From the NCBI RefSeq assembly GCF_018977255.1, contig NW_024704742.1, positions 115,818,001-115,882,000 on the forward strand: 64,000 nt of DNA. The letters run 5' to 3'. Below are positions 4,901-59,607 of this stretch, piece by piece. The position numbers and the translations under genes were made by a program. Every line of letters starts with the position of its first letter. Positions within the stretch are counted from its first letter, which is position 1. The stretch comes from Callorhinchus milii. Its lineage: Eukaryota. The notes beneath the pieces were generated by a model. The model was not told the origin of the DNA and searched no databases. It was given only the letters and a program-made list of their open reading frames with translations.

Positions 4901-7900
4901 CGAAAGGACCTGGGTTTGATTCCCGGCAGGGCAAAATGATAGGCAAGTTTCCTTAGTCCACAAGCCTCTGTTTACCTAGCAGTAAGTAGGAACCTGGTTG
5001 TTAGTCGATTGGTGGATCACTTTTCCAGGGGTAATAATACCTTTTTTTTAAAAAAAATTTAGTCACTCAATCTACGGCTGTGTAGGACTCTGCTGTACGC
5101 AATTGGCTGCCGCTTTTCACCCACAAAGTATACAGTCAATTCACTTTACAGTATATTCTGTGAAGCGCTTTAAGACATCTTGAAGATGTGATAGGGCGCT
5201 TATCAAATGCAAGAATTATTATTATCATATTCATGCTGCCTCATTTTGGACTCAAATGAAACATTTTGAACGTCTATCCACCCTTATCGAATCCTTTTGT
5301 AATCTTAAACACCACTATATTGTTTATTAAAACGTTTGTGTGAAAATAACGTAATTTTTTTTATTTCTTTGTGTATAAATGTATGTGTGGATATTATATA
5401 TTATAGTTAATTTTTATATATTTTTTTCTACAGGGAATCTCCAGATGCGGATTCAGTAGTAAGTAGATCTAGCAAAGACAGAACTGAATTGAATTACAAT
5501 TGCAGGATTAGTTCGTATTTTTGGACACAATTCTACATTTTGGATACAGTTCTCTGCTAAATTATCCCATGCGTTATACGTTTGCATTGTTTATACTCCT
5601 TGTTAGTATACTATCTGGTAAATGATTATTAACTTGATTATGAAGCATTTGTACAATAGTAGATGATCCTTATAACTAGCGTGTACAGTTTGGGATTTAT
5701 TTTTATATAATGGATGTAGAAGAAGGAAACCTTTTAACTAGTGAAAGGTTATATAACTGATGGTAAGTATTTGTTTGCCTGTACAATAATATACCATTGG
5801 CACTTTTCAGATTTGGTTAAATTCTACAAGTGTCTGAGGTGGTTGCCAGACCTTTCTCAAATGCTCCCTTTCCCTCATCTGCCCACGTACTTCAACAAGG
5901 TGGTTAGAATCTTATTTCATCTCCCTTCTTCACCATTGGCTTTTTAATACATAACTAACCCAAGATAACTAAGAGAGGAACGTAAAGGTCGAAAAAGATG
6001 ATTTTAACAGCAACGACAAAATTACATTTATCGAGCACCTTCACGTCGGGAGGACGTCCTAAAGCGCTGGAAAATCAGGGGTCGCGAACCGAGAATAGGG
6101 AAGGGGTGGGGTAGGAGTGAGGGAAGGCAGAGAGGTGGGAGGGCGACCGAAGGCACGATCGAAGAGAAGGGTCTTGAGACCAGCTTTGAAGGAGGCAAGG
6201 GAGGAAGTGAGGCGAAGGGACTGTATGCTGGAGTTCCTGAGTGAAAGCCTGGCCACCGATGGTAGGGCGGGTCGGGCGGGAGACATGGAGCAGACCGGAG
6301 CCCGCTGAACGGAGGGAGCGGGTAGGTTGGTAGGGAGTCAGTAGGTTAGAGAGGTAGGATCCTCTGAGGGATGGGGAGCCAGTGTATCTGAGCTTGATGA
6401 CAGACCATCTAGAGAACTATGTGTAATTTATTTCCCTGTTCAGTTGTATGAGAGAACAACAACCATCTCCGCCGCCAAAAAACCCAAACCCGGCTGCTCG
6501 AGCGCAGATGGTGGAAAACTGGCCTGACAGTTCACTGCCAACTGTGGCTCGAGCATCTCCACAGCTACCGTTGTTCTTTGACACTCGCAAAAACGGCCTT
6601 CTACTCCAACACAACCCTAAAATCCTTTTTTCCACCACCCACTACCTCCTCTGTGCCCCCCCTCAGGCCTCCTCAATCTTCATATCAAATGCCAAATGCG
6701 AGGATGTCATGGACTTCTTTTCATCTAAAATACATAACATCCGCCAGGCAGCCTCATCCACCTGCCTCTTGTCATCCACCATCACGCCCTCTCTGTCCCC
6801 CTCACCCTTCCCATCATCTGCTCCTACCACCACCCCCATGCTACATTCCTGCCTCCCCTCTCTCCCTCCTCCCTCTCACCCACCATCACCTCCAAGAAAC
6901 CCACCACCTGATGCCTCGACCCCCTCCCCACCAACTTACTGGTCACCCAACTCCCACTACTGGCTGACGTCATCAACCAGTCACTCTCTTCCAGATCAGT
7001 CCCTCTCCCCCCCTCAAAACTGCTGTCAACAAACCCCTCCTCAAAAAACCTTCCCTGGATCCCTCAAACCCCAGCCACTATTTCTAACCTGCCTTTCCTC
7101 GCAAAAGTCCTAGAACGCATTGTTGCCAATCAGCTTCGTGCACACCTCTCCCACTCCCTCCTCGAACCCCTCCAGTCCAGTTTCCGCTCTGCCCAGAGCA
7201 CAGAGACTGCACTTGTGAAAGTCACAAATGACATCCTCTCTATCTGTGACCAGGGCTCCCTCTGCCTCCTTGTCCTCCTGGACCTCTCTGCCGCGTTCGA
7301 CACAGTTGATCACGCCATCCTCCTCCACTGCCTTTCCTCCATCATCCACCTCAGTGGGACCGCACTCGCCTGGTTCGAGTCCTACCTCACAAACTGCCTT
7401 CGTTCCACCGGGACAGGCCTCCTTCTTGTCCCCAGAGTCCTCCGCTCCATCCTCAGCGGCCGTGCCTTCAGCCACTACGCCCCGAAGCTCTGGAACTCCC
7501 TTCCTCACTCCCTTCACCTCGCTCCCTCGCTTCCTATTTTCAGGTCTCTGCTGAAGACCTTTCTTTTCAACCCCGTCTTTGTTCACCTTCCTCCCCCCTC
7601 CCCCTGGCTCGGCCCCGGGATCCATTACTGTGAAGCGCTCTTGAGACTCCGTCCGGCATGGAGGGTGCTATATAAATCCAAGTTGTTGTTGGAAACTGCA
7701 GGATTAATGCTGGAGTTTAGGGGACAGAGCTATGAGGAAAAAATGACTTCTCTGGTTTAGGGACTTTACTCTTAAAGGAGATGATTAAGAGAGAACTTGA
7801 TGGAAGTGTTTTTGTGTAAAATCAAATACACCAATTTACTGTCTCCTATTGCTGAATTCATGTTCTTGTCGACTTTGATGCTCACTATCAAGCAGTCATT

Positions 7901-10900
7901 CTCTTCTGCTGATAAGGCACATATTAATGCTGAACTTTAAGCCAATTTAAATTCCTTTGAACCAGTTGGCATTTAAGCCTCCCTATATCTCTGGTCAACC
8001 TAACCTCTTAGATTTTTCCTTGTCTCGAATCATATCTCCCATATCGTGTAATTTTCCTTGCCCCTGGGTTGACTCATACCTCCATTTTGTGGACTACCCT
8101 CCAACTAAACAAACTCAATCATGACAGCTTTGCAGTGCATTTGTTGACTAGGATTCTTTTTACAGAGTTCTTTGCTGATTTTCCCCTTGTCCAAATGCTA
8201 CTTGGATTCTTTTGATCTTCTGTCCCTGCAAGTGAAGTGATCAGTTATTTTAACTTGCTAGGATGGTTGCTTGCCTCAATCTTCCCTGACTGTCAGATTA
8301 GGCCCTGCGTCATGGTTGAATCCTACCTGCTGTTTTGATGTACAAATTCTGCCTATTGACGTCCTAAACAGTCTGAAGCATAATTTGTATTCACCTCGCG
8401 GGTAGAGCTGCTAAATGTAATTTTATTGAAAAGAAGCTTGTCTCTCTAGTGCTTGCTCCTTATGCAATTCTTTTTTGAATCACTCCTCATCATGATGGCT
8501 TACTTGCTGACTCCTAAGGAGAAAGCTGTCCTCTTTATCTTACCTTTCTCCTCTCATTCTAATCTAATATGTGCTTGCAATTAAATGCAAGTGTCCTGAA
8601 AACAGGAACTCGAGCTTTGTGAAGAAGAGCTTTTAAGTGCTTTCACCTCGACAAGTTCCATGAATAAAATTGAGCATCACAATTTCTATTTGCGCCACCT
8701 GTTATGGGAATAAATTCACAAGGTCAGAAAAGGGCTTTCAGACCACCCTTTGATCTTTTGATGTATTTCCATTACAGACAGTATCAAGCTGCTTCAACCT
8801 TCAGTTTACTGGTAATCCATTCCAGCTGTGGACTAACCTCTAACTAACAAAATATCTTAGTATCAACCTTTAACTTTCACTCCACGGCCCTGAACATTTG
8901 CCCACTGGCCCTCTTGCCTTTCTCTATTCTATTTTGCAACTTAACAAATCTCCTTGGAGACTGTTACACATAACTGGTCCCTCTAACACCGTGGATCAAC
9001 CTTGTTCTCTCCTTGGCACTGCTTTTTAGACCTCGGGCCTTATTTCGCAGTTATTGATACTGTACAAGCATTTTAGTTACAGCTTGAACAGAGCTTCAGA
9101 GTAATAACTGGTAAATTTTATTTCAATTGATTTGATAATGTAACTTACCCAGGCCTCTGTCCTTGGCCCTCTCCTCTTTAATATCTACATGCTCCCCCTT
9201 GGTGTCATCATCCGCATACATGGGGTCAACTTCCACATGTATGCGGATGACACCCAACTCTATCTTTCTGCCCCACCCTCAACTCCAGGACCACTGCTAT
9301 CCTGAGAGACTGCCTGTCGGACATCAAGTCCTGGATGAGGGCAAACTTCCTACAGTTGAATGTGAATAAAACTGAGGCCTTCTTGATTGACTCGCGCCAG
9401 TGCCTCAGCACCTCCGCTCTGGCAATATCAACCTCCATGGTTGCATACTACAACTCACAAAGCCAGTCAGGAACCCAGGTGTCTTGTTCGACCCTCAACT
9501 GTCTTTTCTTCCCCACATCCAAGCCATGACCCGCTCTGCCTTCCCTCACCTCCGTAACATCACCCGACTCCGCCATTACCTCACCCCTCAGGCTGCTGAA
9601 ACTCTTGTTCATTCCTTCATCACCTCCAGCCTCCGATTCCATTGGCTCCCTATCCTTCAGAGGATCCAGTTCAAGATCCTGGTCCTCACCTACAAAACCC
9701 TCTATGGCCTCACCCCACCCTACCTCTGCAACCCCCTACCAACCCGCCCGCTCCCTCCGCTCAGCCGGCTCCGGCCTCTCCATGTCCCTCAACCCACCCG
9801 TCCCACCATTGGCGGGAGAGCCTTAAACCACTCTGCCTCCAACCTCTGGAATTCCATTCCACAATCACTCCGCCTCGCCCCCTCCTTAGCCTCCTTCAAG
9901 TCCCGCTTCAAGATCCTCCTCTTCGTCCATGTCATCGGCCACTCCCCTCCCTTCTCTCCCCACCCCCAACCCCAGCTCGGGTCTGAAATGCTGTACACTG
10001 TCCAGCGTCTTGGGACGTCCTCCTGACGTGAAAGGCGCAATACAAGTGTAATGTTGTTGTTGCTTATCTTTATTTAGTTCAAGTGCACTGATGTTGAGCT
10101 CTCTTTGTCTTATCTTGCCTGAATCTTTGATTCTGCACATACCAGCACAGAATCCATGAGACACCCATTCCAGGCAGAAAATGAATAACTATCAAAGGGG
10201 AAGATGAATGTGAAGGCATTGACACAGTAGGGTTGCAAAATGTTTTGTACAATGGCAAACAAAGTCCTCAAGTCTAAACAACCACTGTCATAATGCATAT
10301 TGTTTTGACATTTGGATTATCCAGAATAGTAATCAAACATGCAGTATCACATATTTACCAATTTTTAAATATTACATTGCCATTGTGGATACGCAACTAA
10401 TTAATGTTTATTTTCATTTCATTTTGAGAAAAATAATCTAGCTTTCGCCTTGGTAATCTTACTAAATTATTGGCTCTTCATGTTTTAGTATATATTAAAA
10501 AAAACTTTGGATTAATTTATTAAGGAAACCTGGGTATATGTTTCTCTTGCACTGTTTGGTATTCCTATTTGCTGAATTCATCAAATAGTTATTGGGCAGA
10601 GATACTTGTATTCAGTGACATTTGAACAGTAATGTTGCTGTAAATATTCACTCAATTAATTCAGCATAGTGATGGACACATACAGTTTATTGTCCTCAAA
10701 TTTTGAACTAATTTGGGCCTTTATTTTTATCAAATGCAAGGATTATAATTTATTTTTGAATTGAGAACATTTTATATTCATTTTTTTTCTAAGATGTATG
10801 CTGTATTCTGCAATAGATATGCATATGTATTAAATGCACATTATTATTGTTGCTCCCATGCCAGAAACTGCAACATTAAATTTGTTGTAATTTCCTGAGC

Positions 10901-13900
10901 AAAGTTATGTATTTTCAGTTTCCACTGATGCCCCACTCTTACTCTGTTATTAACTGAGACATTTGAACTTGATTGTAAAATGTACTTAATTTTAAAAATT
11001 GTCGCAATTAGAGACGTTTCTGTAATGGCAACTTGCAGAGTTGTATCTAAGAAAAATTGTTTCTTCATTAGTATTTAACATCTTTTTGTTACAGAATATT
11101 CCAGAGGTGGATGAGGAAGGTTTCTGCATCAAACCAGAAGTGAATCAAAATGATATCCTTAACTTTAACTCTCAGATGTTTAAGTTACCTAAATTTTATG
11201 TGCAAACTGGCAGAAAGGGATCATTCCTTGCTCTTGAACTCCCTAAACTGTACTTTTAGAAGTCAAATTAATATATTATACAATATTTAACTTGTCTAGA
11301 ATGTCTAATTTTAAGATTAACTTTCATACTGACTTCTTAATATAATACAGGTAAAAGTTCACTTTAATATAGTCAAAATATTCTTTGGTCAAAATGGTCA
11401 GATGATCCTTTGAGATTAGTGGAACTGGGAGCTTTGGATTGGCTGGGAACTGATGCGTTGCCTCATGACCCCAGGAAAGCCTATTGTTGTTGGAGTTTTC
11501 ATAAATAGTTGCTTGTTAAAATTAATTGATGCTGCTTCAAGACACAATGTTTCTCTCCGAAACTCTCAAGCGTGGACATGGGATGGCATGTGCTTAGGTA
11601 GAAAAGTAGGAATTCCTCATTTTAGGAAAAGTGTACACTTTATGTATGTTTATTTTCTCACTTTTACTGCTGATATGCATTTTTTTAAAAAAACAAGGTA
11701 TACTGTTTAATAAAAACTTAGTTATACATTATTTCACAAAGAAAAATGTGCTGTAGGATGAAAGCTAAAACCCAAGGGTAGAAAGTTGATTGTGAATGAA
11801 TCCATTGGATTGAACAAACTTGACAAGACTTATCCATTCACAATTGCTCCCATATAGTTACCTTGTAGAGATTAATGTTGTAAAGTGTATATCTATGCTT
11901 AATATTCATCTTTGGTTCTGTAGAATAGCTGTCACAAAATATTTCACCTATAATTTGAAATAAATACTTGTTATTCACTTGAACGATAGCAATGTACATG
12001 TTTGTTTTCCTTGACCAATGTATACATGCCAAAGAGAACAATTTTTACTCATCAAGCGATTCGGGTTCTGATGATGAGGAACCTCGAAAATTTCATGTGG
12101 AAATCAAGCCAATGCAACCAAATAATGGCACCAATCATACATTGGAAGAACTGAAAGCATCCATTGGGAATCTCACACTCTCTCCCTCCCAATCTGTAAG
12201 TAAATCGTTATTGGTCCTGTCCATATACTTTGCAATTAAGTAAATATGAAATAGAGAATTCAGGCCTGTTTCTAACACTTAGATTGCAAATGTTCTCCTC
12301 TCCTGAAGGCGATGACTTATTGGGAAGTCATCCTTCATCACAAAAAGTTTTGTTGATATGTCATTCCAGGCAGGATATCTGATCATGACAGGCATCAAAA
12401 ATTAACACAGTCTCATCAGTCATCAACACATGTGTACTTCCCAGCAGGATTCACTTGAAAGCAATCAAGAACAATCTCTCTTATTTCTCCTTTTCTCCCA
12501 CAATCCTTCCTAAATGTATGTTTAAACCTCTGCTCACTGGCTTGATGGAAAATTAAAGGACATTCCGGAAACTTTAATATTCATTTTATAAAATTTGGCT
12601 TTGCCCAGTTGCAATTCTCCTAAAGCAGCATGATTCTACATCCTTGTTTCTCCTGTAAAGATGATAATATCTCAGTGTAAGGTGCTGGTTTGGGCACAAC
12701 GCAATGCTTTGCAGCCATACAAATTCTGTGCAATTCAATTGTCCTACTTTTGTTAATATGGCATTTGACATTCCTTGAAAGTAAAACATCATCTAAATTC
12801 AGCTTGTCCACTGTCCTGTCCACTTCTCCATGTGGTGTGCATTATATATAATTTGTTTCAGTGTTTTCCTTTCTGCTCATGTCTCTGCATAGAATAAGTT
12901 TGTAAATTTACAAAAGACCTTTGTGTAAAGCATGGATCAGGGCCAGTGCAAGAAGATTGCACAGCTACTGTGATACTGAAACCTTCAACACAATGCCTTG
13001 GATTTTTCCTGTTTGGATGACTACAACAACAACATGATTACATTTGTATAGCGCCTTTCACGTCGGGAGGATGTCCCAAGGCGCTGGACAGTGTACAGCA
13101 TTTCAGAATATTTGTCAATTTACATGTGGAGAATCAGCTTTGTTCAAGCAGTAAGAAAGAACAGATCAAAAGGTAGTAATCTAGCTTTAGCAAGAGAATT
13201 ACCCTGTCCTCGGTACAGGTCATCATCTATCTGTTCTCTTGATTTGAGATTTCTGAATGAGGAAGGGAAAGAGGGAGATAATAATCCTTGCATTTGATAT
13301 AGTGCCTTATGTCTTTGAGATGTCTCAAAGCGCTTCGCAGAATACACTGAAACAAAAGTTACATGTAATGCAGCTGACAGTGATCCTTTTTAAAGTTGGA
13401 TGATAGGCAGTCTTGATCTATTCAGCCCCCCTTTCACCAATCAATAATAATACATTTTGTTGGCATTTGACATTAAAAAAATTCAGCTGAGAATTAACAT
13501 TATGTAATCATATAAGATAAGCATTCAAGACTAATAGAAATAGAACACCAGAAGTCTGAAATGACTGGATCAGCGTGTGAAACCAAGAGAGATTAATCAG
13601 TCCAGCCAAACAGGTGTATTTTCAACATTTTCTGGTTTTACTTTAATTAGTGTATATTGGAGCTAGGATTGAAATTGTTCTGAGTACCTCAAATATAGCT
13701 TCAAACAACAACAATAACTTTCATTTACATATGCCTTTCACGCGAGGTAGCGGCCCAGAGCTTCAAAGAGATTCAATAAATAGATATGTTTCTTAAATAA
13801 GTATACATAGCATTTAACTTGCAATTGTTTCTTCTTTTTTACATGCTCATTTCAGAGGCACAGTCCAGTAAGTAACTGTTTAAACTGAATAAATTACATG

Positions 13901-16900: not shown

Positions 16901-19900
16901 TACTGCTTAAGTCGATAGGCAGGTTATTTTAACCTTTGCCTTCCCACTCTGCACCTGGGTCTCTGCTGTACATTATTGATCAAAACAAAGTGCTGAAATC
17001 TCCACTTGAGCTTTGGGGCAAGCAGCACATACGTCCCCCTGGAGTCACAGAGCACGGTGCTCAGTGTGCGCATGGACTACGACTTCTAATGTGCACCTTG
17101 GCTGCCATTCCCGGCTCTTGGTTCGTTGCTTTATGTCGAAACCTGCGTGTGAAAATCTGCTCGGTCCCCACAATGTCCCCACAAACGGGTAGGACTGTAA
17201 TAAAATCTGGTGATTACAATTTTTTCTGACTAAAATTGGTAAACTATTGCTTCATGGGTTGCAGATGTGACCTTGAACATGCCATAACACACTCAGCCTT
17301 CAGGTTTCCAGCTTTCTGATTATTGTCAATTTTATAATCCAAGGAATATAGCTTAATATTAAACTGTTGTCAGTATATTTATAATGTATGAATGAATGTT
17401 AAAATATTTTTCCTTTATTTAATCCTGTGCTTAGTAATAGTACATCAGCAAGGGATGGGCTATCATTGTAGCAGTCCAAAACTTCGACATAAACCTTTGA
17501 AAGCGTGTTTTAGAACAGTTAAGAATTTGAGCATGGTTCCTAAATTCGCTGAACAGATTGCTAGTGAAATTCATGTGGGTTAAAAAAATAATATCGGGAT
17601 GAACTAACTACAGAACTGAATAGATGAGTACGTATATACTGTAGTAAAGAAGTTTAATTGTTTTAAAAGCCTTTTTGCTTAATTCATGCAGTGCCAAAAA
17701 GGTCAACAGTGATCTGTTTTCATTGGATCCGTTGTTTGGCCCTCCACTTGATTCTTCATCCTCATCCACATCAACTACTTCATCAGGTGATCATTCTGTT
17801 TCTATTGCTGCTCAATATTATAACTGTTTCAAATTGTATCACGTGTAATTAATTAACGATTATCAAACAATTTTTTGAACTGATTTTAAATAAAGTATTA
17901 TTGTTCAGATGTGGAGCAATACCTGTATGGTTCCTTAAGCCATACTGATGGTTTGTACTGGTCTACTGATATTTCCTGTGAACAAAGTGTCAAGAATTTT
18001 CTGATTAAAATTTGCTATGTCGGAGTTGTCAATTTAATGGTCTAGTGAATTGATATCACATTGTTCAATTTTTCTAAATGTTGGAGAGATATTTTAGTTG
18101 TTAGCAATTGGAATAAAATGCAGATTGTTATAGGAATTTGCTTACAAACCTATTTAATTCAATAGATTTGACTACAATTATTTTTCTTCACTTTTTTTGC
18201 GGTTAGTTCTATTAGAATCGTAGGTATTCCAAACATTTTACAATCACAGAATTGAAATATATATTTAATGAATGACTCTTTTCATTTGTCACGTAGGATG
18301 ACAATAATTTAATATTTTTAATAAAGAAAAGGCTGACATAATACAACATATAATAAAGCAGTTTGTGGATTCTGTTGAGGCCAGTAATTCAAACCTATTG
18401 GACAAATTGGAAGCAATTGTTAATTAAATGAATTTATCTGGTTGCTATGTTGGTGGGGTAGGTAACAATAACAATAAAATTATATTTGCTTAGCGCCTTT
18501 CACGTCGGGAGGATGTCCCAAGGCGCTGGACAATCAGTGTTTCGGACCCGAGCTGGGGGTCAGGATCGAGGAGGGTGAAAGGCAGTGGGGGAAGGAGGGT
18601 AACCGAAGGCATGGCCGAAGCGGAGGGTCTTGAAGGAGGCACGGAAGGGGGTGAGGTAGGAGGGACTGCAGGATGGAGTTCCAGAGGGTGAAGGCGGAGT
18701 GGCAGAAGGCGAGCAAGGCGGGGGATGTGAAGCAGGCCGAAGCTGGTTGAGTGGAGAGCGCGGGTAGGTTGGTAGGGAGTTGGAGTTGAGGTAAACAGGG
18801 TTTCCTTGAATCTGAGTTGGCTTCAAGGTGACTTACTTCACAACAGAATGTCGGAATTAAATTGCCCTCTGTGGTGGTCTTGATGAAAATGGGTCTGCAG
18901 TACTCTAAAGCACTGCTAATGGTACACCAGCCGGTCTGGTTTGTCAGTACTAGAGACTGGGATTCTTCCCACTTGGCTTCTGTTAACCTTGGAATTCAGA
19001 GCCCTGACTGGTAGGATTGTCCCAGCTAAACAAGCAATGGGAAGCTTGACAGATAGTGCTCTCGATGGCATGCTATGAAATTTTAACTAGGTAAACTCCA
19101 GCAGTACCCTGGTGTGCATTCTGGAGTCCTTGAGCGTTGGCTCTTGCCAACCTACACCTAATACTCTCTGGAATTAGGTAAGTGGGGTGTGACCCTTCAG
19201 GGGAGAGTGCACATTCCATTCCAGACACATAGAAATTTCCATTCAGAGGTGGCATGTATATGTGGAACAGTCAATTTGAATATTCTTAAGCATAATGAAG
19301 GGTCTCTTATGTTGCAAACACCCAGCTGACCAAACAAAATATACAGTTGCCATAAACAGTGACCAACACATCCATATAATAATAAATAATAATAATCCTT
19401 GCATTTGATATAGCGCTTTTCATGTCGGGAGGACGTCCCAAAGCGCTTCACAGAACACACTGTAAAGTGAATTGACTGTATATTTGTGGGCGAACGCAGC
19501 AACCAATTGCGCACAGCAATATTCCACAAACAGTCGTAGATTGAAAATGACCAATTTATTATTGTTTTTGTTTTTTTGGAGGATTTATTATTAGGCATGT
19601 GGAGTAAGGAAACTTGCCCAAGGTTTCACCCTGCCTGGAATTGAACCCAGGTGTCTCACTTGCAAAGTGAGTGCTCTAACCACTGAACTACAGGACTCCA
19701 CAATAAGCCAAACTTCCCAGATTCATTTGAGCAACCCTTTTTTGTAAGATGTTGCTTTGATAGACGGTGGACAAATATGTGTTTTCTGTGAGGTAGGATT
19801 GAGATGCATTATCTGAGTCAGGTAGAAGTAGCTTAAAAACACAGTTGAACTGCTTCGGCCTTGAGTTCCTGGTGGCAACATTTGATGCAGATGTTGGAGA

Positions 19901-22900: not shown

Positions 22901-25900
22901 TGTTGTTGAACTTCACAGTCTCAATTAAATCCAGCTCACACAGTGAGTTCTTCATGGGAAATGATTCAATGTGTTGCACATTCAAACTTTGCATTTTTCA
23001 AATTCAACTTGTTGACAATATTTCATTAATTGCTTTGCTTCTGTCTTCTTTCTTGTTTTTCTTAACATTTTCTCTCAGCTCTTCACTCCCTTACAACAAT
23101 CAATCCGCATCTTTCTAGCGCTTCAGAGGTACATGCAGTGCTTTCTTCAGGTAAATTAACTAATTGTGCATTGGAAAGGCATGGAATGAAATGTGTTTTG
23201 ATGAGTGATTACCCAGTAATTACCCAGCAGAGTAGTTTTAAGAAGGAAAATTTGGGACTCTTTGACAAGAGCTTCACAGAGGAAATAGAACTACGCTGAG
23301 TTGATAGTTTTTGAGTTTGTCTGTAGAATCTTCTTAAATGAGAAATATCTTGATTAATTTTAGTTTAATTTTCAAAATTACCAATGGAATGAAAACTCTT
23401 AAAAACTTGCTCGCCTCCTATGAAAGTTGATGCAAAATAAGGGTATAGTAAATATCAACTTGTTGATTGCATGGTAAATGCTCTCTTGGGTACTGTATGC
23501 TAATAGTTATCCTGGAAATGTAATCAAATACTTAATGGGTTCAAAATTAATTCCAAAATTGATTTTGATTTTACTCATTTTTACATTCTTAGATCTTTTA
23601 CAGCACTTTTGTAATTTACAGCAGTGAGTTGATCAGTTTCTTCTAATGACATTGGAACACTAAATGAATAATTGGACACCAAAAAAGTATCATTTTATTT
23701 CACTATAGAAAAATTCTACTCCATTAACTAATTCTGGCATGTTCTATTGTCTAAGAAAGTTTAATGTATCAAAATAGTCATATAATTGAGCCAGTGAAGT
23801 GTTGTTCCATTAAATTCCATTCCATCTATTAAGTTATAGTTGAAGGTAATTATTCTTAAACGAATTTAGAGTTCTGTTTTCCTCCTGTGGGAATCTTCTG
23901 CTTGCTAACTGACAAAGGTGTGTGATATTAGTTTAACATGGTGCAGTTTGTTTAAAATTGATAACTTGAATTAATATGCTCAGTTTATTAATCGATTAAT
24001 GTTCTAAATGTTTTAATATTTGCATGATTTTTTAAAAAAACTTCATCACTACTAGCCCTGCTGAGAAATGTGAAAATACACTTGTCTCTATAAATTAATA
24101 TCACACTCCTTTCTAATGCATATGTGTTCTAAGCTTTCACCTTCTCCAAGCTTTCAATTCTCCCTTTTCCTTCAGCTGAATTAACATGGCCTGAAGGGAG
24201 CTCCACATTGTCGAGTCATCCTGTTTTACCTTGGGGTATAGAAATTGAGTCCTCTGTGAAACATCAACCAAGCTACGAGTCTAAGAGTCGTAGTCCTGAC
24301 ATCTCTGACAACCTTGTGCCTGACTCAGATTTTAGTATAGTGACAAATTCAAAGACCTTAAATGGTCCTCCTCCCATTCCCACTTCACGGAATCAGTGGA
24401 TTTCATTTAATGATGAACTAATTCCAAGCAAACCTTTGAACTTGCAGTTGAAGGAAGAAATACATTCTAAAACTTCAAACAGCTCCAATGCTCCAGTGGC
24501 CTCTATTGAATTATCTTCCAGCGACACATCTGATGATCGAAGTGACCTTCAGGATGATTTTTCAGGTCATAGGAGATTATCCATTGAAGAAAATGGCACT
24601 GGATCAGAAAGTTTTTCCATCTCTACACCTCAGTCAGTGGACATTAGTTTAACACCTATGGTCGCTCGATTAAATAATGGTATGGCAAGCATGATTTGTA
24701 CCCCGACTGTACGCTTAGTATTTTTGGACTGTGCCCTTGTCTTCCCTTAATATGGTTTCCTAGTGTTTAAAACAAAAATAGTTTGGATGAATTCAAAACT
24801 GGCATTACGTGACCAAAAGTTGAGGCATCTGAGCGCTCACATTTTGAGTCTCAATTCAAGTGAATGTTCCGAACTAATTTTGCGTACGTTTGCTTGTGTG
24901 TGTGTGGCGGGGGTGGGGGGTGGTGTTTAAGGGGTGTCTGAAAAAAAGCATGTAAAGTTCAGCCTCTAATTGGCAGAAAAGGTAGTGTGTTTTGTAAGTA
25001 GAGTAATTCCCTTTTCTGCTGCTCTCCTAGTACTCCAGTGTTGTTCAGGATCAGGTAGGGCAACAGGTGATATGCAGGTGTCATATTGTCATTTGTGGGA
25101 AAGGTGAATTCAGCTTGTAAGGATTTTTTTTAACTAGGAGTGGAAAATGTTCTGAACCTTTAACAAACTTTACGTTAATTTAGAAAAAATTTGATTTTTT
25201 TCACCTTGTGTATCATTAATTAGGACTTCCAAATAATGTTATAAATATGATATTCAATAATGTAATAAATTATTGCAGTTTTACTTCTGTGATTAAAATT
25301 TTAGTATAATCAGTCAAGTTAGTTGAAAATCCTTTTGGTTGGACACGTTCTAAGGGCCTAAGCAAAATAAGTTTGAGTAGCTTCAATTTATTTCCTCAAA
25401 TGGTTTATACTTTAGCATAATGGTGGCAAACTTTTTTGGTCAGCCAACAAAATAATTGTTCTTGATTTGTGCCATCAATCAAGAAACAAAACTGGAAACA
25501 AAACATTGATTTAGAACTGACTCGCTTAGACTAGTGTGAACGTCCGGCGGGCCACTTCTTGGTAGTCCCATGGGCCACGGGTTGGCTACTGCTTTAGCAT
25601 CTGGCACTAACTGAACCATGTTTCTCAGACCATGAGGTCTGTCGGGGGTAATGCACATTTCTACAGCAAAAATGCTTTTTTTTCATAATAAGGCTGCAAT
25701 GAGTGGAGGGAGGTCTGGATTGTAACAAATCTATAAAATACCAGCCTAAAAGGGCCTGGTGTTGTTGGCTGATTCTGAGTAAGAAAAAAAAATGATGTTG
25801 CACCTTGCTGCTCCATATGGAGAGCAGTCAACTTAGCAATATCAATCAGGAAGTGCAGAGTCTGACCTGGCAAGTGTAGGGAGGGAAGGAATGAAGGAGG

Positions 25901-28900
25901 GAGGGAGGGAGCACTGGGAGGCTGGAACCTTTGTGGTGCTCTTGCAGATCTTCCACTGTATAGTTCAAGAATAAAATTAGCAGAAACCTAAGATCAGATC
26001 ATCAGTATTCCCTTTTAATAGTGCCAGCACAGGTAAGCAAATCGATTTAGTTTTAAGTGGAACAAAACAAAGTTGTATTATCTATACAGTATAATTTAAA
26101 TTTAGATTTTTTTTGAAGACAAGTTTTTTCTGATCCTTGTCATAGACATGCCATACCATTGTCAGATAATTGGCTCCCATTTGCTGACAATACCACTCTG
26201 CTTGGAAGTGGAAGAGATCATCTCCTGTAATTTCTTCTCTTTTTGGCAAAGTTCAAGAACTCAGTGTGTGGAGGATCATGGATACAAAAATCTACTTCTG
26301 ACACACTTGGAGCAGAGTGTATTAGAACTCAACCAAACAAGCTAAGCTACTCCAACCAATACTAACATTTACAATTAGTGTATGGAAGTAGAATTTCAAA
26401 CTCCAAATTGAGAACTGCTTTCCCGCTTTAGCGTGGGAATATTTTGAACCCATAAAAGTGGCATTTACCTCTTCGGTCTGTCAGTTTCTATAGTTTGTGT
26501 CTCCATGATTGGTGGGAGTTGTCAGAGGACAGTAGATATCAGCACCATTTGTAAGCAAAATGTACAATTGTGAAGTTGATATCTTCAGGGGAAAAAGAAG
26601 TTATTGAATTATGTTTCAAACTCAGAACTTATCAAAATCTTGAGTCTTGTTTTATTGCAAAGTACAGTACAGGTTAATGTTTCTCACAATATGAAAATGG
26701 TCATTTTTAATAATTCTACCATTATGAAAACTAACATTTCTAAAGGGGCAAGAAGGAACTTCACAAGATAAAATTAAACAAATGGCCGTTTCTAAAGTAC
26801 ATTATTATAAGTAACTTTAAACAGAACAAAGGAACTAGGTGGCAAAGTGAAATGCAGCAGATACTTGCCTTTCAGCTCTTGAACCCCAGCTGATGAGATG
26901 AGTCATTTTTGTCTTTTAGCTGGAAGGATTCTATGCCATCTTAGTTTGTGTAGTTTCCTTCTAATTGATAGTGGGTATGAGCAAACTGGTTCTGAATATT
27001 ATTTGTGGGTTATTGATTAAAAATATTATATGGTAAAATAGACCTGAGTTACGTGGGTGATTTCTGTAACTCCATGAATGGCTCGTATGCAGAGCAGTGT
27101 CCACTGCTTTACTTGTGAATGTTCCACATGGGAATTTTGAATATTGAGATTTTTAAAAAATGGTTAAGCATTCCATTTGAATGTAAATAAAAGCTAATAT
27201 ACTACAGATGTTGACATCGACTTGATTCAGAATCCACTTCCAAGACATTAAGATGGGGCATTCGGTCAAAGCTTCAATATATAATGAAATAGAAATGTGC
27301 ATTCCATGTAATAAATGGCGCAAATTGAAATGTTGGAAAAGAGATCTCGAGTACTTTTTATTTTGTATTTGTGTGTGCATTACTTGTCTTTTTCTGCCTC
27401 CCCCAAATAGTATCACCACCTGCAAGGCCTACCACTCCTCACAATGCAGGTGGCCTTGTGCCACCACCTCGGCCTGCTTCTCGACCAAAGCTTTCTTCAG
27501 GAAAATTGGGTGGAATTGATGAAATGGTAAGGTCCTATTTAAGTTTTTTAATCCTACAAAAATCTGGAAGAAAATTTTGTGATGATATCTGATGATTATT
27601 CTTACTTTGCACTGGTAATAACAATATTTGATGTTGCTAAGTTAGTACTTTTGACCTTTTTTGGTTTAACACATTATAGCTACTAATGAGTGTTGGAGGT
27701 GATTCTCTATTGATAAATTTACCAATCGTGATGGGTAGTGTGTAGTGCCAAACCCATGTAGAGAGCATATTCAGTTGTCACTCCCATCTTTTGGATGGTT
27801 TATTTCATATCTGAAAGTTGTTCAAAGAATGAAGATTAAGGTGTTTTTTTAAATAACAGAATAAACTTGCTGACCTTGTCCAAATTTATAGTCAGTCGAG
27901 TAGGGAAAGCCTGCTGTAAATTAAAATACATATACACTCAGGAATGTGGCCACTGACTACTGCAAAACTCTGCTGCCCATATCCTATCCCGCACCAAACT
28001 CCGTACCCCCAATACCCCAATCCTTACCAGGCTCCACTGGCTCTGTATTACAGAACAGATTGATTTCAAGATCCTCACACGTATACAAATTACTTCATGC
28101 CCTGGCACCTTCCTAACTCTCCTGCTTATACCCCACTCCACTACCTGCCACCTTCAATCCCCTGGCTCCGGCCTACTACATTGTCCCCACTACTACAACT
28201 CCACCAACGAGGCTATGCTTTCACCCATTACGTCCCAAAACTATGGATCTCTCTCCCTCCATCCGTCCGCCTTGACCCTCCTTCCCTGTCTTCAGATCAT
28301 ACTTGAAGACCTTCCTCTTCGACCGTGCCTCCTCCCTCTTCCCCAGCTCAGCGTCAAGCTCTGCCAATGTTAAGCACTCCCAAGATGCTACCCAGCATGA
28401 AGGGCGCTATATAAATGTAAGTTGTTGTTCCCTGCGAATCCACCACAATTCTGGGAAAGGAAGGAAGTTTTTAGTTTAAAAAAAATTTTCAAATTATTTT
28501 TATACATGTCTAATTTCCTTTACCTCAAAACTGATGTTGATTACACCTCCAAATGCGAAACCTGCTGACAATCTAACTATGTATGCGCATTTGGCACAGA
28601 ACTCAGCTGCTTTGTCCCCAAATGCGAAACCTGCTGACAATCTAACTATGTATGCGCATTTGGGGACAAAGCAGTTGAGTTCTGTGGCACCAGGCTGTCT
28701 AAACCACCAAACCTTGAATTACTTAGCCGTAAAGCAAAATTAATCTTATGACCCAGAAGGTCGGAGTTTTTCCTGTGAAAGTTTGCAGTGAGTAACGTGT
28801 ACAAGCATTTGCAGGCAGCTGCTCAGTCTCAACAAACCAAATTAGTTGTGTAAACAGGGTACAGTACTGGAGTAGTGTCCCAGTACCTTTTTCTGATGAG

Positions 28901-31330: not shown

Positions 31331-34300
31331 AAGTGGCATCACCAGGAACAGACCAGGGATGATTTAGAACAAGACACCTGGTTTTCTTATTGGACATTAG
31401 ATAGTAAGAAGCATAAAAATGGTCAGGGAGGAAAGGGAACTTGATAACATAGTTAGTATTTGCAAAAGCAATAGAACTTGCTGACACTGTAACGTTTAAA
31501 TAAAGCTATAAGTACAGATTTATAGAACTTATTTAAATAGCTAATATCTTTTTTGTGCCATGCATTGATTCCTAATAAAATGCACTAACGGAATATTTAA
31601 AATGTAAGATTTTTTTTGCTATTTGTTTAAGGATGAGTGTCCACAGGGTTCTATTATGGGCCATGTGTTAGCATAGTTTTTATTTAATTAACCAATCAAC
31701 CAATATTGGTTGTCAATAATAACCAACTGTGGTTGATAATTGCATAATTAAGCACTCCTGTAATTCCCTTTCCAAGGAGTTACAAAAAAGTTGCCAAATG
31801 TGTTTCACATGGCACATATTTATTCAAGCTCTTTATGTATAATAAAATATTACATTTTCATTGTTGATTTGTGCATTAGCTTTCATTTTTCTGCTGCATA
31901 GAAATTACATGAAGCAAGGATAGCAGTCGTTTGTGCATTTATCTATTTTTGTTTTGAAACCGAAGCATAACAGAGATATTCTGTTCAGCTACCCTTAACT
32001 TTGTTGTTCACTATCTTGAGATAGCATATTAATCAATGAGAAATGTGAACAGTGGAACAATGTTATGATGTTGCATGTAAGCAATGCAGTGTTGCTTTCA
32101 GAACTCAGAGATGTGATTTGCACTGTCACCTCACAAGATTTAACAAAGTATAAAGGTTTGCAAATACTTTGAGAAGTGTTCTCAATTTAAAATATCATTA
32201 CATAATATTTTTGTGTTCCATACATAGTTGTAATCATAGATCATCCAAAACAAATGACTTAAAACGTTGATATTGTATTACAATGTGATACTGTATTTAG
32301 AAATTTTCAAAAAGACAAGTAATATGATATACTGTTATGTCTTACTGATTCAGTTATATCTGTTGTGTCCAAACTGGTGGTATGTAAAATGTTTGAAACA
32401 ATCCCTTTAGTTCAATTGAAAATTCTTTGTATAGTCTTTATGCGTTTATTTTTCCTCAGTTGGTGAGCCTTTCCGTATGAGCTTTGCTGTTGGAGGTCAT
32501 ATGTCTGCTATTGTTGGTAATTTTTCCACTTAATTGTTATGCCCACTGAGTTTGCTGTGTACCTTTGCGACCAGGACCAGAATGGAGTTTTTTTTTAACC
32601 AGAATTTGTTGAATCAGGATTATAATACTGTGACAGAAAGTTCTTTAACTTGATTTTAATGCTGTGATAAGAAACGTTTCATGTCACATCCAATGTTAGA
32701 ACAGCAAGAGAGCAGTCAGGGAGACAGTTAAAACCCAAAAGCGAGTTGAAAACAAGGATGAGTGAGTAAATCTTACTTTATCCTGCCTTCTCCATTCCAA
32801 TATGTTCTAATTTTCAAATGAAGTACAAAAGCCAAGATTTCTCATTAGCAGTAAACCACAATTTTAAAACTACTTTGTAAGGTTATCTTTCCCACTGTAA
32901 ACTGAAAATTTAGAACTATCAAATCTTGGTGAAATGAATAGCTTTTGTAACCACTTATCACACGGTTTTCCACTAGTGACTAAAATACATTAAAACACTA
33001 AGTATCGATATGAGGACTTTCAGAATAAGTATCTTTGGAAAAGTAAAGTTCTTATTAGTATTTAAACAGAATAGATGTTTCTGTTATTATTGGCTATCCT
33101 GCACTCCAGGCAGGGATGAAAAAAAGTGTGCACAGTGCAAAGCTCTTATTTGTATGCCACTTCACCCATAAGCAGAACAATGTGATCTGATAGAAAACTA
33201 GTTTCTCCATAACAGTCAGTGGTTAATTTCAGTAAACAGTCAATGTTTATTAATAATAATCTCCTAATTTGCCTTGTGCTCGTTTCCTTTCTTAAATGCA
33301 AAATACGCAAATTGTTATAAAATACACCCAAGATGCATGTGCTCATGCCAATTTTAGTGAAATATTTATCTGTAACATTTTATACTAATACTGGTGGCAT
33401 AATACATGATCATGCTTCATGATCATGTTTTGTAATTGCTTTCTGCTGTCCACTGTTCAATATACAACAAAATAAAATTTTCTGGTGTAAGTAAGCAGCA
33501 TTTGATGTCAACTGTAAAATGGAGACAATTTCATATATGATTGCGGAACGTGATTCTCCAAACTGAGACCCAGAATACAGCATCATTGATAGTCAAACCA
33601 GGTTTCATCAGTTGTGGGGGATGATGAGAAAATAGTCGTGAAGGGATCTCTTTTCAAACAAACAATAAATTAATTGATATTATTTATGGAGATGTCAATG
33701 GGCTAGGCTGTGCTCTGGACCATAATAGGTGAAGGGATTAACAATATTTTCTCTTCAGTCAGTAGTTGCTGGTTTAATGTAACATTTTCAATAAAGATGT
33801 TGTGCTTTGCCTTGCATGTCTTCCTCTGCTGCAGTATTAGTGAAGGGCTTTGGTGAACTGGGCTTTGGTTTGTTGTGAAGATTTTTATCTTAATACCCTG
33901 TTTTAATGGATGAAGTATTGGGGTTTTAAGAACATTGCTGAATATAGCTATTTGGTAGCATGATTGGCTGCTCATCTGGAGAACTGGTATAATAAAATAT
34001 TGCGTAACCATTATCAGCATAAGAGGAGTAAATTAGCACAAAGAACAATTATATTATGGTAAATACTATATGGAATCAGAGTTTACTGCCTAATGTAGTT
34101 GTGATTCGCATTCTAAATAATCAGGAAAAAATAGAAATTTGACAAGCATTTTCAAATTCTTAAAACTATTAACATGTTTCAACATTTGTGCAAGTAAGCA
34201 GGAATGTTCCAAGATCATTCCAATCCATGTTTCATATGCACAGGGTATAAATTGTGGTGTTTCAAAATTCATTGTACATGTTTTTTTTGGTGCTAAAGTG

Positions 34301-37300
34301 CAGAGGTTACGTTCATTTCAAACATTGTTGTGCTAAAAATGAGTTTAGTAATTCAGCAAAATTTCAACTCGTGCCATTTCTTAGTGGTTCGATCCGATGG
34401 ATTTCAGTCAAAATAATTATTATAAAAATAAAAATGCTTTCATTGATGATCTAATAGGTAAATGCTTAGTAAGTAGCATTGAGCCATACAAAATTGAACA
34501 TTAAAGATTTCATCCAGGATAGCACTGAGGCTCTACAACTGTTCTCAGGTCTCCAGATGTAGGGAGGGGGAAATCACCAAGGTTCCCTTTTCTGAATGAT
34601 TATCTACATGGAGACATACCTATCAAAAGAGTGCATGCAGAGAAAAATATGACTAGAAACTTATTGATATGTAACATTGTTATAAATAACAAACCCAATT
34701 TCCATTAGTACATTCCATCCAAATAGTCACTAACCATTGATCAATCCCATGAATAAAAATTGTATCTAACCAAAATTGTTTATTTTCTATCTAAGCAAAA
34801 GCTGTGACAAAATGTCAGTGATATAAAAATGAACATAACAAATCTTTGAGTGTATTTAATTGTAAATTAAATACAATTTAATTTAAAAGCCCATTTGGAC
34901 ATCCTCCTGATGTGAAAGGCGCTATACAAATGTAATTTGTTGTGGTATAGTTTTATTGCTCTGAAATTAATTGGATTAAGGATTTGCACACCAACATACT
35001 GAATGCAACCTCTGACTGCTTGACGACCTTGCTTTTAAATCCGCTCACTGTCGTGCGCCCTTTGTGTCTGCTTTTGTTTCAATTGTAATAGATGATGATG
35101 TGTTCATTGGGAAACTTCCTTCATTTGAGAAGCGCTGTGAGACACCTGCAGGTACAGTACTTGATGAGAGCTTGATCTAATCTTCAGACACTTTATAACC
35201 CTAACCTTATTATTTCAAAGTAACATTTTCTCTCATTTGCAGTTGTGAACTTATTTTAACAACCAAATTTCCCAACAACCCAGATTTAAAGTCTATGTAA
35301 ATTTAACAATTTATTTAGTGTATTTTAAATAAGATATTAAAGAAGATTGCTGGGGCTCAAAGACATCCAAGCCCTAAAGAACAATTTATTTTTCTCCCTG
35401 ATAACACTGAACATTTCGTTTTGAATTTAAATGGAAGTTCTGTAAATTTGCACTTGCATTCTGTTCTGTTTAACATTTTTAAGTGATTCTATATTAGACG
35501 GAATAATGTATTGAAATATCCTTGGATAAATACATTAGCTGTGCCTATTGCTACTTAGAAGACTTAGTTCATGTATGATTCTTTGTGGCACAGTTCTTTG
35601 TTGAAAAACTTCAAATATTGCGAAGCACTGAGTTCTTTCTTTGTTTTGGAAAGCTTTGGGATCCAGAAATTATTTGAATATTTGAAAGGGGGAGAGATAA
35701 ATACTTGTGAAGTAAGAAGACTATTAAGGGATATGGAGAAGTGATGGGCAAATTGAATTGAAAAATCTGCCATAATCAAATAAATTGGCAGAACAGGCTC
35801 GAAGGGCAAGTGGCTTTCTCCTGACCCGGTGTTTCAGTAAGCTTTGAGAAATCTGAGCTGGAGAAAAAACACGATCTTCTGTTCATATATTTGCACTATT
35901 GCGATTATTTTGGCTAATGTTTTCTTTGCTTCAGAGTGTGGCATTCCATCAGTAGAAATCTCTGCAAAGCATTATCTGTAGGTTTAGATCTAATAGCAGC
36001 ACTGATTATTGTGAAACAGAGGTTCAGCACATTTGGGATGGACTCTAGATCAGAACGTTTTCTTAGGGTTCAAGGAGTAACCTTCACCCGCATATCTAAC
36101 ACAGGTTGTGAATGAAGCATGGATTGATCCAAGATCTTTGGAGACCAGTGGATAACATCGTTCAGTACAGTTGTGGATGTTTCAAAAATTACAGTGTGAA
36201 ATAGTGTAATTGCACTATAATAGAAAGCAATATGATGATGTGTACTATATTCTGATTGGATGCAACCTGCTGTTTTTTTTGTCTCGCTTCCACAGATGCA
36301 AAAACCTGATAATTGCATTAAATAAATAATGTGGTCATTGGATGTGTGAAAAAATCATTAGTATTCCATAGGAGTAGTTGCTAATTTAGATGCTTATAAG
36401 GTACATGCAGCCTTTTAGCTAAGTGGAGTAGTTACATTAAATGTAAAGCCCTTAAAATTGGGTTTTTTGCTACAAATGAATAAAGGCCAGAACTGGTCTA
36501 GTTTGATTTAGAACCTTTTGCTTTTATTTTACATATTTTTCTGACTTTCAACATACTGATTCTTCAGCAGCTTTTGCACAAATGATATTGGTTTTTAAAT
36601 TTTATTTTAAACATTCAGCTTTTGCTCTTGAATTTTCATAGCTTTCTATAGCTAAGACTGAAACTGAGACTTTCAAACATGGTTTACAATTCTAGCTTGG
36701 AAATAAGGGACAAAATGAACTGGATTTGATTTGACTTTTAGATTGTTCTTATCTGATTGTGATGCAGTTTTTAATGTGTATTTACACCAGATTAAATCAT
36801 GCAGTATTTCTAATGTTGTGAAAACTGTCACTTTAACCTTACTGTTTACAAAAAACTTGTGCTCAGTTTGGCTTTATGTGCGGCACTCTTTGTCTGCACT
36901 CAATGGTTTTAGCATTATGTGTTGCAGTAAGAATTGCCCTTATGCTCAAACTGTATGTATAATGAAGCTTAATGGCAATTTATACTGGACACATCAATAA
37001 GACTATATCAATTCAGATATATATAATGAAAGAGTAGCAGTAATTTGTACTGCACCACATAACCCTAGAATTGTGCATCAATGTGTATCTAGAAAGAAGC
37101 ACAGCAACAATTTGAACTGCATTGCATAATGCTAGGACTATGCATATTGATTCAGATATTTAACAAACTTCCAAGCTCTTACCCCTATTCATACATGGGA
37201 GAAGGGTTTACACAATCTACAAAAGTGCAGATATGCATCGCCAGACATTTGCTTAACTGGTATACTTCACATTGTTTAAAACAAAATTAAATTCTTTGCA

Positions 37301-50880: not shown

Positions 50881-51104
50881 TTGGTGACTGGATTGTCCCA
50901 CCCCTGTTATACAGGAACCTGTGTGTGGCACATCTTTGCTGTTATTTTGGTTGCTAATGTTAGAAGTAACTAGTTGAAAATAGGCTGATGAGGTTGAAAC
51001 ATTTCCTCAAATCAGTTAACTAAAAACTACAGTAATTACTCTCCAATGGCAGTAAACATTTTCTGGTGACAAGCTCAAGACCAGGACTGGAGAAGTCTGA
51101 GAAT

Positions 51105-52200
51105 ATTGGTCACTTTTACCACCACTCTGTTGTCCACAGCCTCTCCTCTCACCTCCACCTCAATGGTTCTGTCCTTGCCTGGTTTTAATCCTACCTTTCC
51201 CACCGTCTGCACGTTGTGGCCACCAACAGCTTCTCCTCCAGCCACCGCACTGTCACGTGTGAAGTCCCTCAGGGATGTGTCCTCGATCCCCTACTCATCA
51301 GGGTATACATGCTCCTGCTCGGCGATATCATCCACAAGCACAGGGTTAATTTCCACATGTATGCAGATGACGCCCAACTCTATCTCACCGCCTCTATCCT
51401 CGACTACAGGACTGTTGATGTCCTGGCTAATTGTCTGCCTGACATCAAGTCTTGGACGAAAGCCAACTTCCTCCAGCTCAATGTTGGCAAAACAGAGGCC
51501 CTCCTTCTTGACTCCCGGCAGCGTCTCCTCACCCCAGCTGCTGATGTTATCACCATTGATGGCTGCACTCTTCACCGAGCCAATCCGAAACCTCGGTGTC
51601 CTTTTCATTATGTCCTGGCTTGACTACGCCAACTGCCCACTGACTGGACTTCCCACTCTTCCCTCCACAAGCTACAGATTATTCAGAACTTTGCAGCTCG
51701 TGTCCTCTCCCGCATCAGGCTCCAGGAACCCATCATTCCCGTTCTTGCCTGGCTTCACTGACTCCCCATTCCTCGGAGAATCGAGTACAAAACCCTCGTT
51801 CTTACCTTCAAGGTCCTCCATGGTCTTGCTCCCTCCTACCTCTCCAACCTCATAACCCCATATCAACTTTTCCATTCCCTCCAATCGGCCCCCCCACACT
51901 TCCCGGCCCACCATTGGTGGTCAGGCATTCAGCATCTCTGCCCCCACTCTGGAACTCTGTCCCACAAACCCTCCACCTCATCCCCTCTCTTGCCTCCTTC
52001 AAGTTTCAAGTACCATCTGAAGACCCTCCCTGAAGACCACTCTCTTCGTGCCTTCGGCCACCCTCCCAACCCCAACACTACCGCCCCCACCCTCCTCCCC
52101 TTCTGACTCCAACTCTCAGTTCGGATCCAAAAATTCCTGACTGTCCAACGCCCTGGGCCATCTTTCCAACGTGAAGGGCGCTATACAAGCATAATTTGTT
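51105..52200 (+). mobile_element. L2 LINE 3' fragment with RT core
   Basis: ORF 51216..51623 VPQGCVLDPLL..FHMYADDAQLY..FLQLNVGKTE; canonical tail. Confidence 0.9.
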
Positions 52201-57297: not shown

Positions 57298-58567
57298 GTA
57301 ACACAAAGTTCTGTTCTCTAAGATATGTTTTAGTAAAAGTGTTTGCTTATTAACCTGCAAAATGAATGCATTGTATGTGTGGGGTGTGGTGGTGTGTGTG
57401 GGGTGGGGAGGGGGGAGTTTGTATTTAGGTCACACGATTGTGCTTTTGTAATTGAATAAAATAATCCCATTTCCATCTAAAGTGGTAAGTTTTCTATGTT
57501 GATGCAACTAATTGCAGATCCTCATTGCCATTTTGGGGCTCAGCTTGGGATAATACAGTACATCCATCCTCTTGGTATTTCTCTCTGGCGATGACCTGGT
57601 TTGTAATTTTTTTAAAAAAAACAAATAAAACTTTCCAATAGAAATTTGACCGAGCCAGAGTCTGATCCGGCTCCAGTTGTCTGGAATTGATAGGGATTTG
57701 GGAGTTGCTTGTCCAGGACCTGGGCTCCTCTTAGCCTGCAGACTCCCAGAGGTTATAACTGGGCAAACTATCAGCCAAAAAAGGTTCACTCTTGTACTAT
57801 TTAATGTTCCCTGTCAGAGATATTGTGTGGGGAGGGGGGAGGTCGACAATCAGCTGTGATTTACAGGGAATTCCCTCAGGCAACTAAATATTTCTCAAAT
57901 ACAGAATTCAGAAACTAGCATGTGCAAATATTCCGCTGATCAAGGTATAACTGGAATAGTTGCCACAAGGTATATATGGGCATAAGTCAAGTCGCCTTCA
58001 GTTGACCTCCTGGGAGCAGAGGAGGAGTGTGAATGTGAGCACTATAAGGGGCATTATCATCAGGAATATAAACCATGTTTGAACAGAAACTGTGACGAGT
58101 TATTGATGGCGAGGATGCTGGTGTTTTGTGCTTGTGAGGTGTGTGGGTGCTCCTAATGGAGAATGCATGTCATTTCAGTGACCAGACTGTTCTGGTTTGA
58201 GTTTACCTTTTCACCATAATCCTATCTCCTCCAACACTGAAGGGTGAGCCTCTCGTTGACGATTGTTATATTACTTACAGTTACATCGACTAATTGTATA
58301 TCATTTTTATTCCTAACTTGCAGGACAATCTTGGCCAGAACTATGAAATTGTACAAACATCTTGTCATAATGCTTTACAACACAGGTGCCTTGTAATGAT
58401 TAATTTTTGCAGTGTTCATGTTAAAGCAGGTTGGTGAGGTGCTTCAGGAAGCCAGAGTGGAAATGGTATGTTTCCTGTCACTGTCAAAAGAATAAACTCG
58501 CTACAATACTGTATCCACAGGCACTGCATACCATCAGAGGAACAGAGCTTCTCACTCCTCTTAACTG

Positions 58568-59183: not shown

Positions 59184-59607
59184 GTGAGTGAGAGGATAAA
59201 GTAGAGATAGTAGCATCTTGCAAATGTGTCTAGAAACTCCATTAGGAATTGGCGTGGCTCCTCAGCTATCCCTCCTATTGCTACAGTACTAAAAGCAAGG
59301 GAGGGTGGTTATATACTTGGATATTCCTTCCCATTCCTTCAAGCGTCAGTCAGTCTGGACACAATGATCCCAAACTGGATTCTGCAACCTGAAATAGTGC
59401 ATGGGAGCATAATACTGTACTGACCCACTCCTGTGCTGTGAACTTTATTTCCCTTTTCATGCATTTAATCACCAAACCATTAAAGGTTCCTTCACCAAGA
59501 TGTTTAAAATCTACCCCAGCTTCACAGGGGAATCAAATGACAACATAACATTTGAATGTAGAAATATCTCTTTTCAAGAGTATTGTGCCAATCCTGATTC
59601 TTTTTCG

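Follow-up and report, generated by a model that had tools for sequence, protein, structure and literature searches.

The window, a 64,000-nt stretch of the Callorhinchus milii genome, contains within FCHO2 a 504-nt cassette exon that preserves the reading frame whether it is included or skipped. On comparison with other vertebrate sequences we favor, with moderate confidence, the reading that it is an old vertebrate muniscin exon, optional by splicing, that would add a predicted ligand for the sandwich site of the AP-2 alpha-appendage beside the C block. Both FCHO2 and SGIP1 contribute to the opening of AP-2 when clathrin-mediated endocytosis begins.

The cassette exon and its splicing in C. 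milii

The 3′ part of FCHO2 lies on the plus strand of the window, where successive exons match shark FCHO2 proteins (tblastn) between about 1.9 and 45.7 kb. Four of five translated FCHO2 exons are exact substrings of all six C. milii FCHO2 records (P0067–P0072), and the fifth is found in three of the six. The identity of the gene is further supported by exons for the APA region, the C block and the muHD, present in that order. In a muHD tree of 26 rows, none dropped, record P0068, which matches the window, groups with FCHO2 (support 94/93). Most F-BAR exons have no match in the window and presumably sit upstream. The features used below are as follows.

12026..12195, plus strand: exon with most of the AP-2 activator (APA; N2–N3) region (tblastn, joints)
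17692..17786, plus strand: C-block exon (LDPLFGPPL), upstream neighbor of the cassette (tblastn; joints 16471>17692 and 17784>27409; exact substring of P0067–P0072)
23079..23150, plus strand: optional 72-nt exon, phase 1/1, which can precede the cassette (AG/GT sites, frame)
24176..24679, plus strand: cassette exon, 504 nt, phase 1/1, 168 codons, low-complexity Ser/acidic linker (sequence, orthologues, contig ends, cover)
24397..24417, plus strand: WISFNDE, a WxxFx[DE] motif, the most conserved part of the cassette (alignment of orthologues)
24566..24679, plus strand: candidate short form of the cassette, from an internal in-frame acceptor, cag/GTCATAGGA, with the motif excluded (equivalent annotated in seven ray/skate records)
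27411..27526, plus strand: downstream exon (SPPARPTTP...RPASRPKL), target of the skip and inclusion joints (tblastn, joints, frame)

At the APA exon, the FCHO2–AP2 structures 7og1 and 7oho were matched through P0068, and the 3′ part of the 72-nt exon gives a 59% match to shark isoforms (tblastn).

Several other elements were observed in the window. The intron at 11153–12025 interrupts the AP-2 activator region; it has AT..AC ends in all four RNA runs described below, starts with ATATCCTT and carries TTCCTTGAC close to its 3′ end, a pattern that we take to be that of a U12-type minor intron. A 12-nt microexon at 13856–13867 is flanked by AG..GT, and its letters are found between the exon ending at 12195 and the exon beginning at 14099 in one X2 contig. 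Two more small, optional-looking FCHO2 exons, at about 32453–32516 and 35085–35153, precede the muHD and are matched by only some skate and shark isoforms. Decayed pieces of LINE-like reverse transcriptases and short repeats of high copy number occur in introns such as those at 1158–1733, 6427–7757, 9251–10023 and 51070–52103. A TMEM171 open frame (Pfam PF15471, E 1e-38) follows FCHO2 on the plus strand at 58565–59188.

The cassette acceptor (ctcccttttccttcag) has pyrimidines at 15 of 17 positions, the donor reads ATG/gtatgg, and both ends are in phase 1. No stop arises when the cassette is joined to 17692–17786 and to the exon from 27411, and the skip form is likewise open. The exon comprises 167 whole codons (P0001), or 168 residues when the split codon is counted. 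From the stop frequency of the 9.6-kb intron in which it lies, about 0.003 stop-free frames of 168 codons would be expected by chance. The first-pass annotation had placed here a stop-free, phase 1/1 exon of this length with an acceptor and a GT donor, fitting in frame between the DPLFGP and ARPTTP exons and encoding WISFNDE at 24397–24417; coordinates, length, phase, peptide and motif position all proved correct. It had also called the peptide a Ser/Pro/acidic linker, which is apt for serine (21%) and acidic residues (D+E 14%) but not for proline, at only 9%. When the peptide was shuffled 200,000 times, 1.5% of the products contained a WxxFx[DE] pattern. Searches of Pfam and PDB returned no match to the peptide; the Atlas was also blank, which is uninformative on absence or novelty.

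Evidence on splicing came from contigs of four of 13 listed runs (X1, X2, X3 and X5, from two studies), which we assumed to derive from RNA and in which exon–exon joints are visible. The skip joint 17784>27409, equivalent to 17786>27411 after two shared letters and with GT..AG at cut +2, is present in all four runs. The cassette is missing from all six C. milii records whose flanking exons equal the window letter for letter. Contig ends bear on the included form. One X2 contig ends at 24170 with 55 letters unplaced upstream, which is the break point predicted by joint 23150>24176, and among 760 upstream GT sites 23150 alone explains this end. An X3 contig ends at 24678 with 30 letters unplaced, the break point predicted by joint 24679>27411. 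Both are among the joints that had been proposed for a junction check, and the small upstream exon alluded to there is 23079–23150. Neither joint is itself among those listed, and it is through the contig ends, that is, indirectly, that the included form is seen to exist in C. milii.

Read cover is consistent with inclusion in part. The cassette bin exceeds the downstream intron bin in 4/4 runs and the upstream intron bin in three (X1, X2 and X5). For X3 the upstream intron bin (30.6) exceeds the cassette bin (19.8), so part of the cassette cover may be unspliced RNA. Depths of the skip joint and the cassette in the four runs were 46/36, 333/20, 266/14 and 10/5, although contig depth is a poor measure of isoform use. 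Since the runs carry no tissue labels, the proposal of a "switchable" module holds in the sense of an optional, frame-preserving exon rather than a tissue-regulated one.

Conservation of the cassette and its motif

The cassette peptide found nine shark and skate FCHO2 records, 58 to 65% identical over the full length, among 517 candidates. A search with the exon and its flanks, whose query contained the motif and may favor motif-bearing records, gave long FCHO2 isoforms from coelacanth, lungfish, bichir, sturgeon, paddlefish, gar, tarpon, eels, turtle, many birds and opossum among the 120 of 1473 matches listed. Other protein searches added bowfin and a halosaur. With the opossum exon as query, 11 of 586 candidates matched (six marsupial, three monotreme, one bird and one lungfish), extending the carriers by four marsupials, platypus and echidna; none of these 11 was placental. 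To our knowledge, canonical human FCHO2 is without the segment. Because the opossum search was insensitive, recovering one of the many known bird records, loss of the cassette in placentals is a lead only.

All of these orthologous isoforms are database predictions, exemplified by Mustelus X1, Latimeria X3, Lepisosteus X3, Taeniopygia X1 and Monodelphis X3, each with an orthologous cassette. As long isoforms are annotated widely, the cassette is already part of predicted gene models (RefSeq/UniRef), unlike in the six C. milii models retrieved, from which the segment is missing. The description of the exon as hidden is thus true of C. milii but not of vertebrates in general. The suggestion that this fish in particular retains it did not survive: the cassette was found in each group proposed for comparison (shark, ray, gar, coelacanth and bird), with frame and motif conserved in other chondrichthyans, and gene annotations contain it throughout jawed vertebrates as far as marsupials and monotremes. 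A relic specific to chimaeras or sharks was also rejected. The conserved orthologues ruled out a repeat-derived or chance open frame as the source of the cassette, which is almost certainly a real exon. We noticed no functional annotation of the segment in the RefSeq/UniRef long-isoform records.

The exon also appears to be optional elsewhere, several sharks and rays having both long and short FCHO2 records. Partial forms that omit the motif occur in rays and skates, through an internal acceptor in seven records and an internal donor in one; in the window, an AG at 24566 occupies the position equivalent to the internal acceptor.

Conservation within the cassette is concentrated on the motif. 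WxxF is present in 71 of 71 long records among the 119 that had both anchors (from the 120 of 1473 matches listed), counts that represent isoforms rather than independent lineages; P0089, dropped for its anchors, has WxxF too. The stricter WxxFx[DE] holds in 75 of 79 motif-bearing records, the exceptions, three from turtles and one from paddlefish, having no acid at +5. Across 12 clade representatives, column identity was 0.85 at residues 71–81 and 0.49 elsewhere in the cassette; Q73, W74, I75 and F77 were invariant, and all of the best-scoring seven-residue windows overlap the motif. Platypus and echidna records have a shortened cassette that ends a few residues past the motif. A second tryptophan lies five residues upstream of the motif tryptophan in 32 of 79 records and is not found in chondrichthyans. 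Judged by these alignments, one short motif is under far stronger constraint than the rest of the exon, in agreement with the WxxF-acidic motif originally described.

Relation to SGIP1 and other muniscins

The first-pass annotation had likened the cassette to a linker of SGIP1 and had inferred an ancestral origin. In SGIP1 of the same genome, an exon of about 700 nt in phase 1/1 encodes WIDFSE (G000:C5, minus strand, about 3549903 or 3549888 to 3549196, the 5′ boundary being approximate). The two exons occupy the same slot: the FCHO2 cassette precedes the SPPARPTTP exon, and the SGIP1 motif exon directly precedes the GSSSPARPATP exon. The phase match is weak evidence by itself because all mapped introns flanking linker exons past the C block are in phase 1. 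A survey of muniscins at 50%-identity representatives, restricted to the best 150 of 2273, contained SGIP1 motifs of the forms KWVHFSD (hamster and sheep, matching the form that the first-pass annotation gave for SGIP1), KWVNFSD (bobwhite) and KWVCFND (a cyprinid). Two of the six SGIP1-type records in this set, both teleost, have WVxF without the acid. A hagfish muniscin with an F-BAR domain, also in this set, reads HWVSFDDE, in line with an ancestral origin.

SGIP1 also offers a parallel for optional use. Rat SGIP1beta is described in PMC11213518 as being without 165 residues from N273 (N273–E438). In hamster SGIP1, 165 residues counted from the apparently corresponding Asn, a correspondence taken from length and position, span KWVHFSD and end at the ARPATP block. 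The SGIP1 optional segment of that description thus resembles the FCHO2 cassette in gene slot, in phase (1/1 in this genome), in being optional and in a W-[VI]-x-F-[SN]-[DE] motif. It differs in being proline-rich and unalignable outside the motif, and SGIP1 of jawed vertebrates, unlike FCHO2, has no F-BAR domain.

We regard shared ancestry of the FCHO2 cassette and the SGIP1 motif exon as probable, on the basis of position and motif. The competing account, which we consider unlikely and which is itself compatible with AP-2 binding, is that the motifs arose independently in unrelated disordered, symmetric exons and that the cassette is a novelty of jawed vertebrates. It draws on the lack of alignable sequence: hhalign joined cassette and SGIP1 over 12 columns with a probability of 4.2% (E 0.01), and SGIP1 linkers scored no better than reversed decoys against a cassette HMM. 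Homology of the whole segment was rejected on these results, and the likeness to an SGIP1 linker stands for slot and motif alone, since the sequences outside the motif do not align. The segments also differ in proline content (9% in the cassette versus 19%) and in the offset of the motif (residue 74 of 167 versus 40 of about 165). In the comparable slot, the FCHO1 locus of the same genome (C21) has a long open frame that lacks WxxF, and the motif is missing from the five lamprey records among the best 150 of 2273. In the 26-row muHD tree, moreover, the hagfish gene sides with lamprey and SGIP1 rather than FCHO2 (unstarred support 93/93). Against independent origin stand the common slot, which in each of the two genes of a single genome is bounded by the LFGP exon region and the ARP[TA]TP exon, the common W-[IV]-x-F-x-[DE] form and the optional nature of both segments. 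The distance from C block to motif tryptophan is also alike in FCHO2 (86–123 residues), the hagfish protein (72) and SGIP1-type records (85–92 in three, 56 in a fourth).

The 26-row tree is compatible with the hagfish gene being either an SGIP1 orthologue with a retained F-BAR domain or a gene that predates the duplication. As hagfish P0130, which groups with lamprey records, has an F-BAR domain, SGIP1-type genes may have kept this domain in cyclostomes. Lamprey P0281 and P0161, named SGIP1 and FCHO2-like, have near-identical muHDs (branch lengths <0.004) and may be forms of one gene. Among other records, P0227, P0237 and P0270 (about 1230–1250 residues) are distant proteins with F-BAR and muHD and with WxxF-like stretches in long linkers, and the teleost FCHO1-like P0134, P0199, P0279 and P0280 have WxxW (GWAAWP) in the linker past the C block, without an acid at +5.

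A predicted contact with AP-2

WISFNDE conforms to WXX[FW]X[DE]n, the consensus of ligands that attach to the AP-2 alpha-appendage at its sandwich subdomain (PMC5694535 and PMC3794858). NECAP and AAK1 are described as competing through WxxF-type motifs (PMC6706699). Like the ligands of NECAP1/2, the stonins, synaptojanin 1 SJ170 and AAK1, the FCHO2 motif fits the consensus and is internal to a probably disordered part of an endocytic accessory protein; the SJ170 motif likewise belongs to a long splice isoform, judging by a title cited in PMC5694535. The FCHO2 motif, a putative ligand, differs from these in that just one copy is present and its companion is a C block of the LFGPxL type.

In PMC9054013 (Zaccai et al. 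2022), the FCHO2 linker has four AP-2-contacting blocks, N1, N2, N3 and C, of which C is the final highly conserved region. The C block is reported there to bind the platform site of the alpha-appendage at 50–200 μM (100–200 μM for FCHO2 and SGIP), and WxxL of the mammalian FCHO2 C block to bind C-mu2 in the Yxx-Phi site at about 25–56 μM. The cassette motif resembles these blocks and the APA (PMC4215536 and PMC4215538) in being short, conserved and part of the same linker, the cassette directly following the C block. It differs in being optional by splicing and in that it would contact another AP-2 surface. The muniscin linker constructs described in PMC4215538 covered FCHO2 314–444 and Sgip1 77–214 and end before the motif.

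Inclusion of the cassette would make the probably disordered linker from the C block to the mu-homology domain 168 residues longer (192 with the 72-nt exon). It would also supply a WxxFx[DE] motif as a ligand of the alpha-appendage at its sandwich (side) site, which we consider the likely partner of the motif. With the C block bound weakly at the platform and the motif at the sandwich site, one FCHO2 chain could occupy both sites of the appendage. Two-site avidity is proposed because the C block alone binds the platform weakly and the motif would supply a second site. FCHO2 would then stay on AP-2 for longer, or would contest the side site with NECAP, AAK1, stonin and synaptojanin.

The exon and its motif might instead function through a different partner, which we hold to be improbable: the motif would be a Wxx-Phi ligand in the Yxx-Phi cargo pocket of AP-2 mu2, or would bind some other ear or mu-homology domain, for example delta-COP or the AP-1 gamma ear. 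The mu2 pocket gains plausibility from the WxxL of the mammalian C block, which binds C-mu2 in this site according to PMC9054013, and from the C block in the window, which reads FSLDPL without the mammalian tryptophan, so that a second Trp motif could substitute for it. The C-block WxxL and the cassette motif nevertheless co-occur in birds and marsupials, and the invariant F at +3 and the acids at +5/+6 fit the sandwich consensus. A reader of Trp motifs is suggested also by the upstream tryptophan of some records, a paired pattern that resembles di-tryptophan ligands; its absence from chondrichthyans speaks against this likeness. Gamma-ear motifs require upstream acids, which are lacking at the FCHO2 motif. 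Far less probable still is that the cassette lacks any specific function, being a spacer included at a low level or a by-product of annotation, and that its motif arose by chance. The predicted status of the orthologous isoforms and the greater depth of the skip joint in 4/4 runs, by the poor measure of contig depth, would agree with such an origin. Conservation largely refutes it: from chimaera to opossum the frame has stayed open and the motif intact, and the motif is a conservation island that outlasts the shortening of the exon in monotremes.

We return to the alpha-appendage as the probable partner. The literature searched, which included few subscription papers, gave no description of the FCHO2 cassette, nor of WxxF in either FCHO2 or SGIP1. 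As predicted models already contain the cassette and its motif belongs to a familiar class, this would amount to known parts put to a new use and not to a new system. A broader proposal, which we advance tentatively and hold at somewhat less than even chance, is that one ancestral WxxFx[DE] exon forms a fifth, splice-switched AP-2 block of FCHO2 and SGIP1, optional throughout jawed vertebrates and lost from FCHO2 only in placentals. If so, the cassette would have been overlooked because work on FCHO2 uses human and mouse clones. Mammalian SGIP1 would then keep the motif, which in mammals sits in a segment apparently missing from a cloned brain isoform, and SGIP1/SGIP1alpha and SGIP1beta would differ in their avidity for AP-2. 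A fifth, switchable block at the side site of the appendage would give isoform control over the time for which muniscins hold AP-2 and over the proteins with which they compete.
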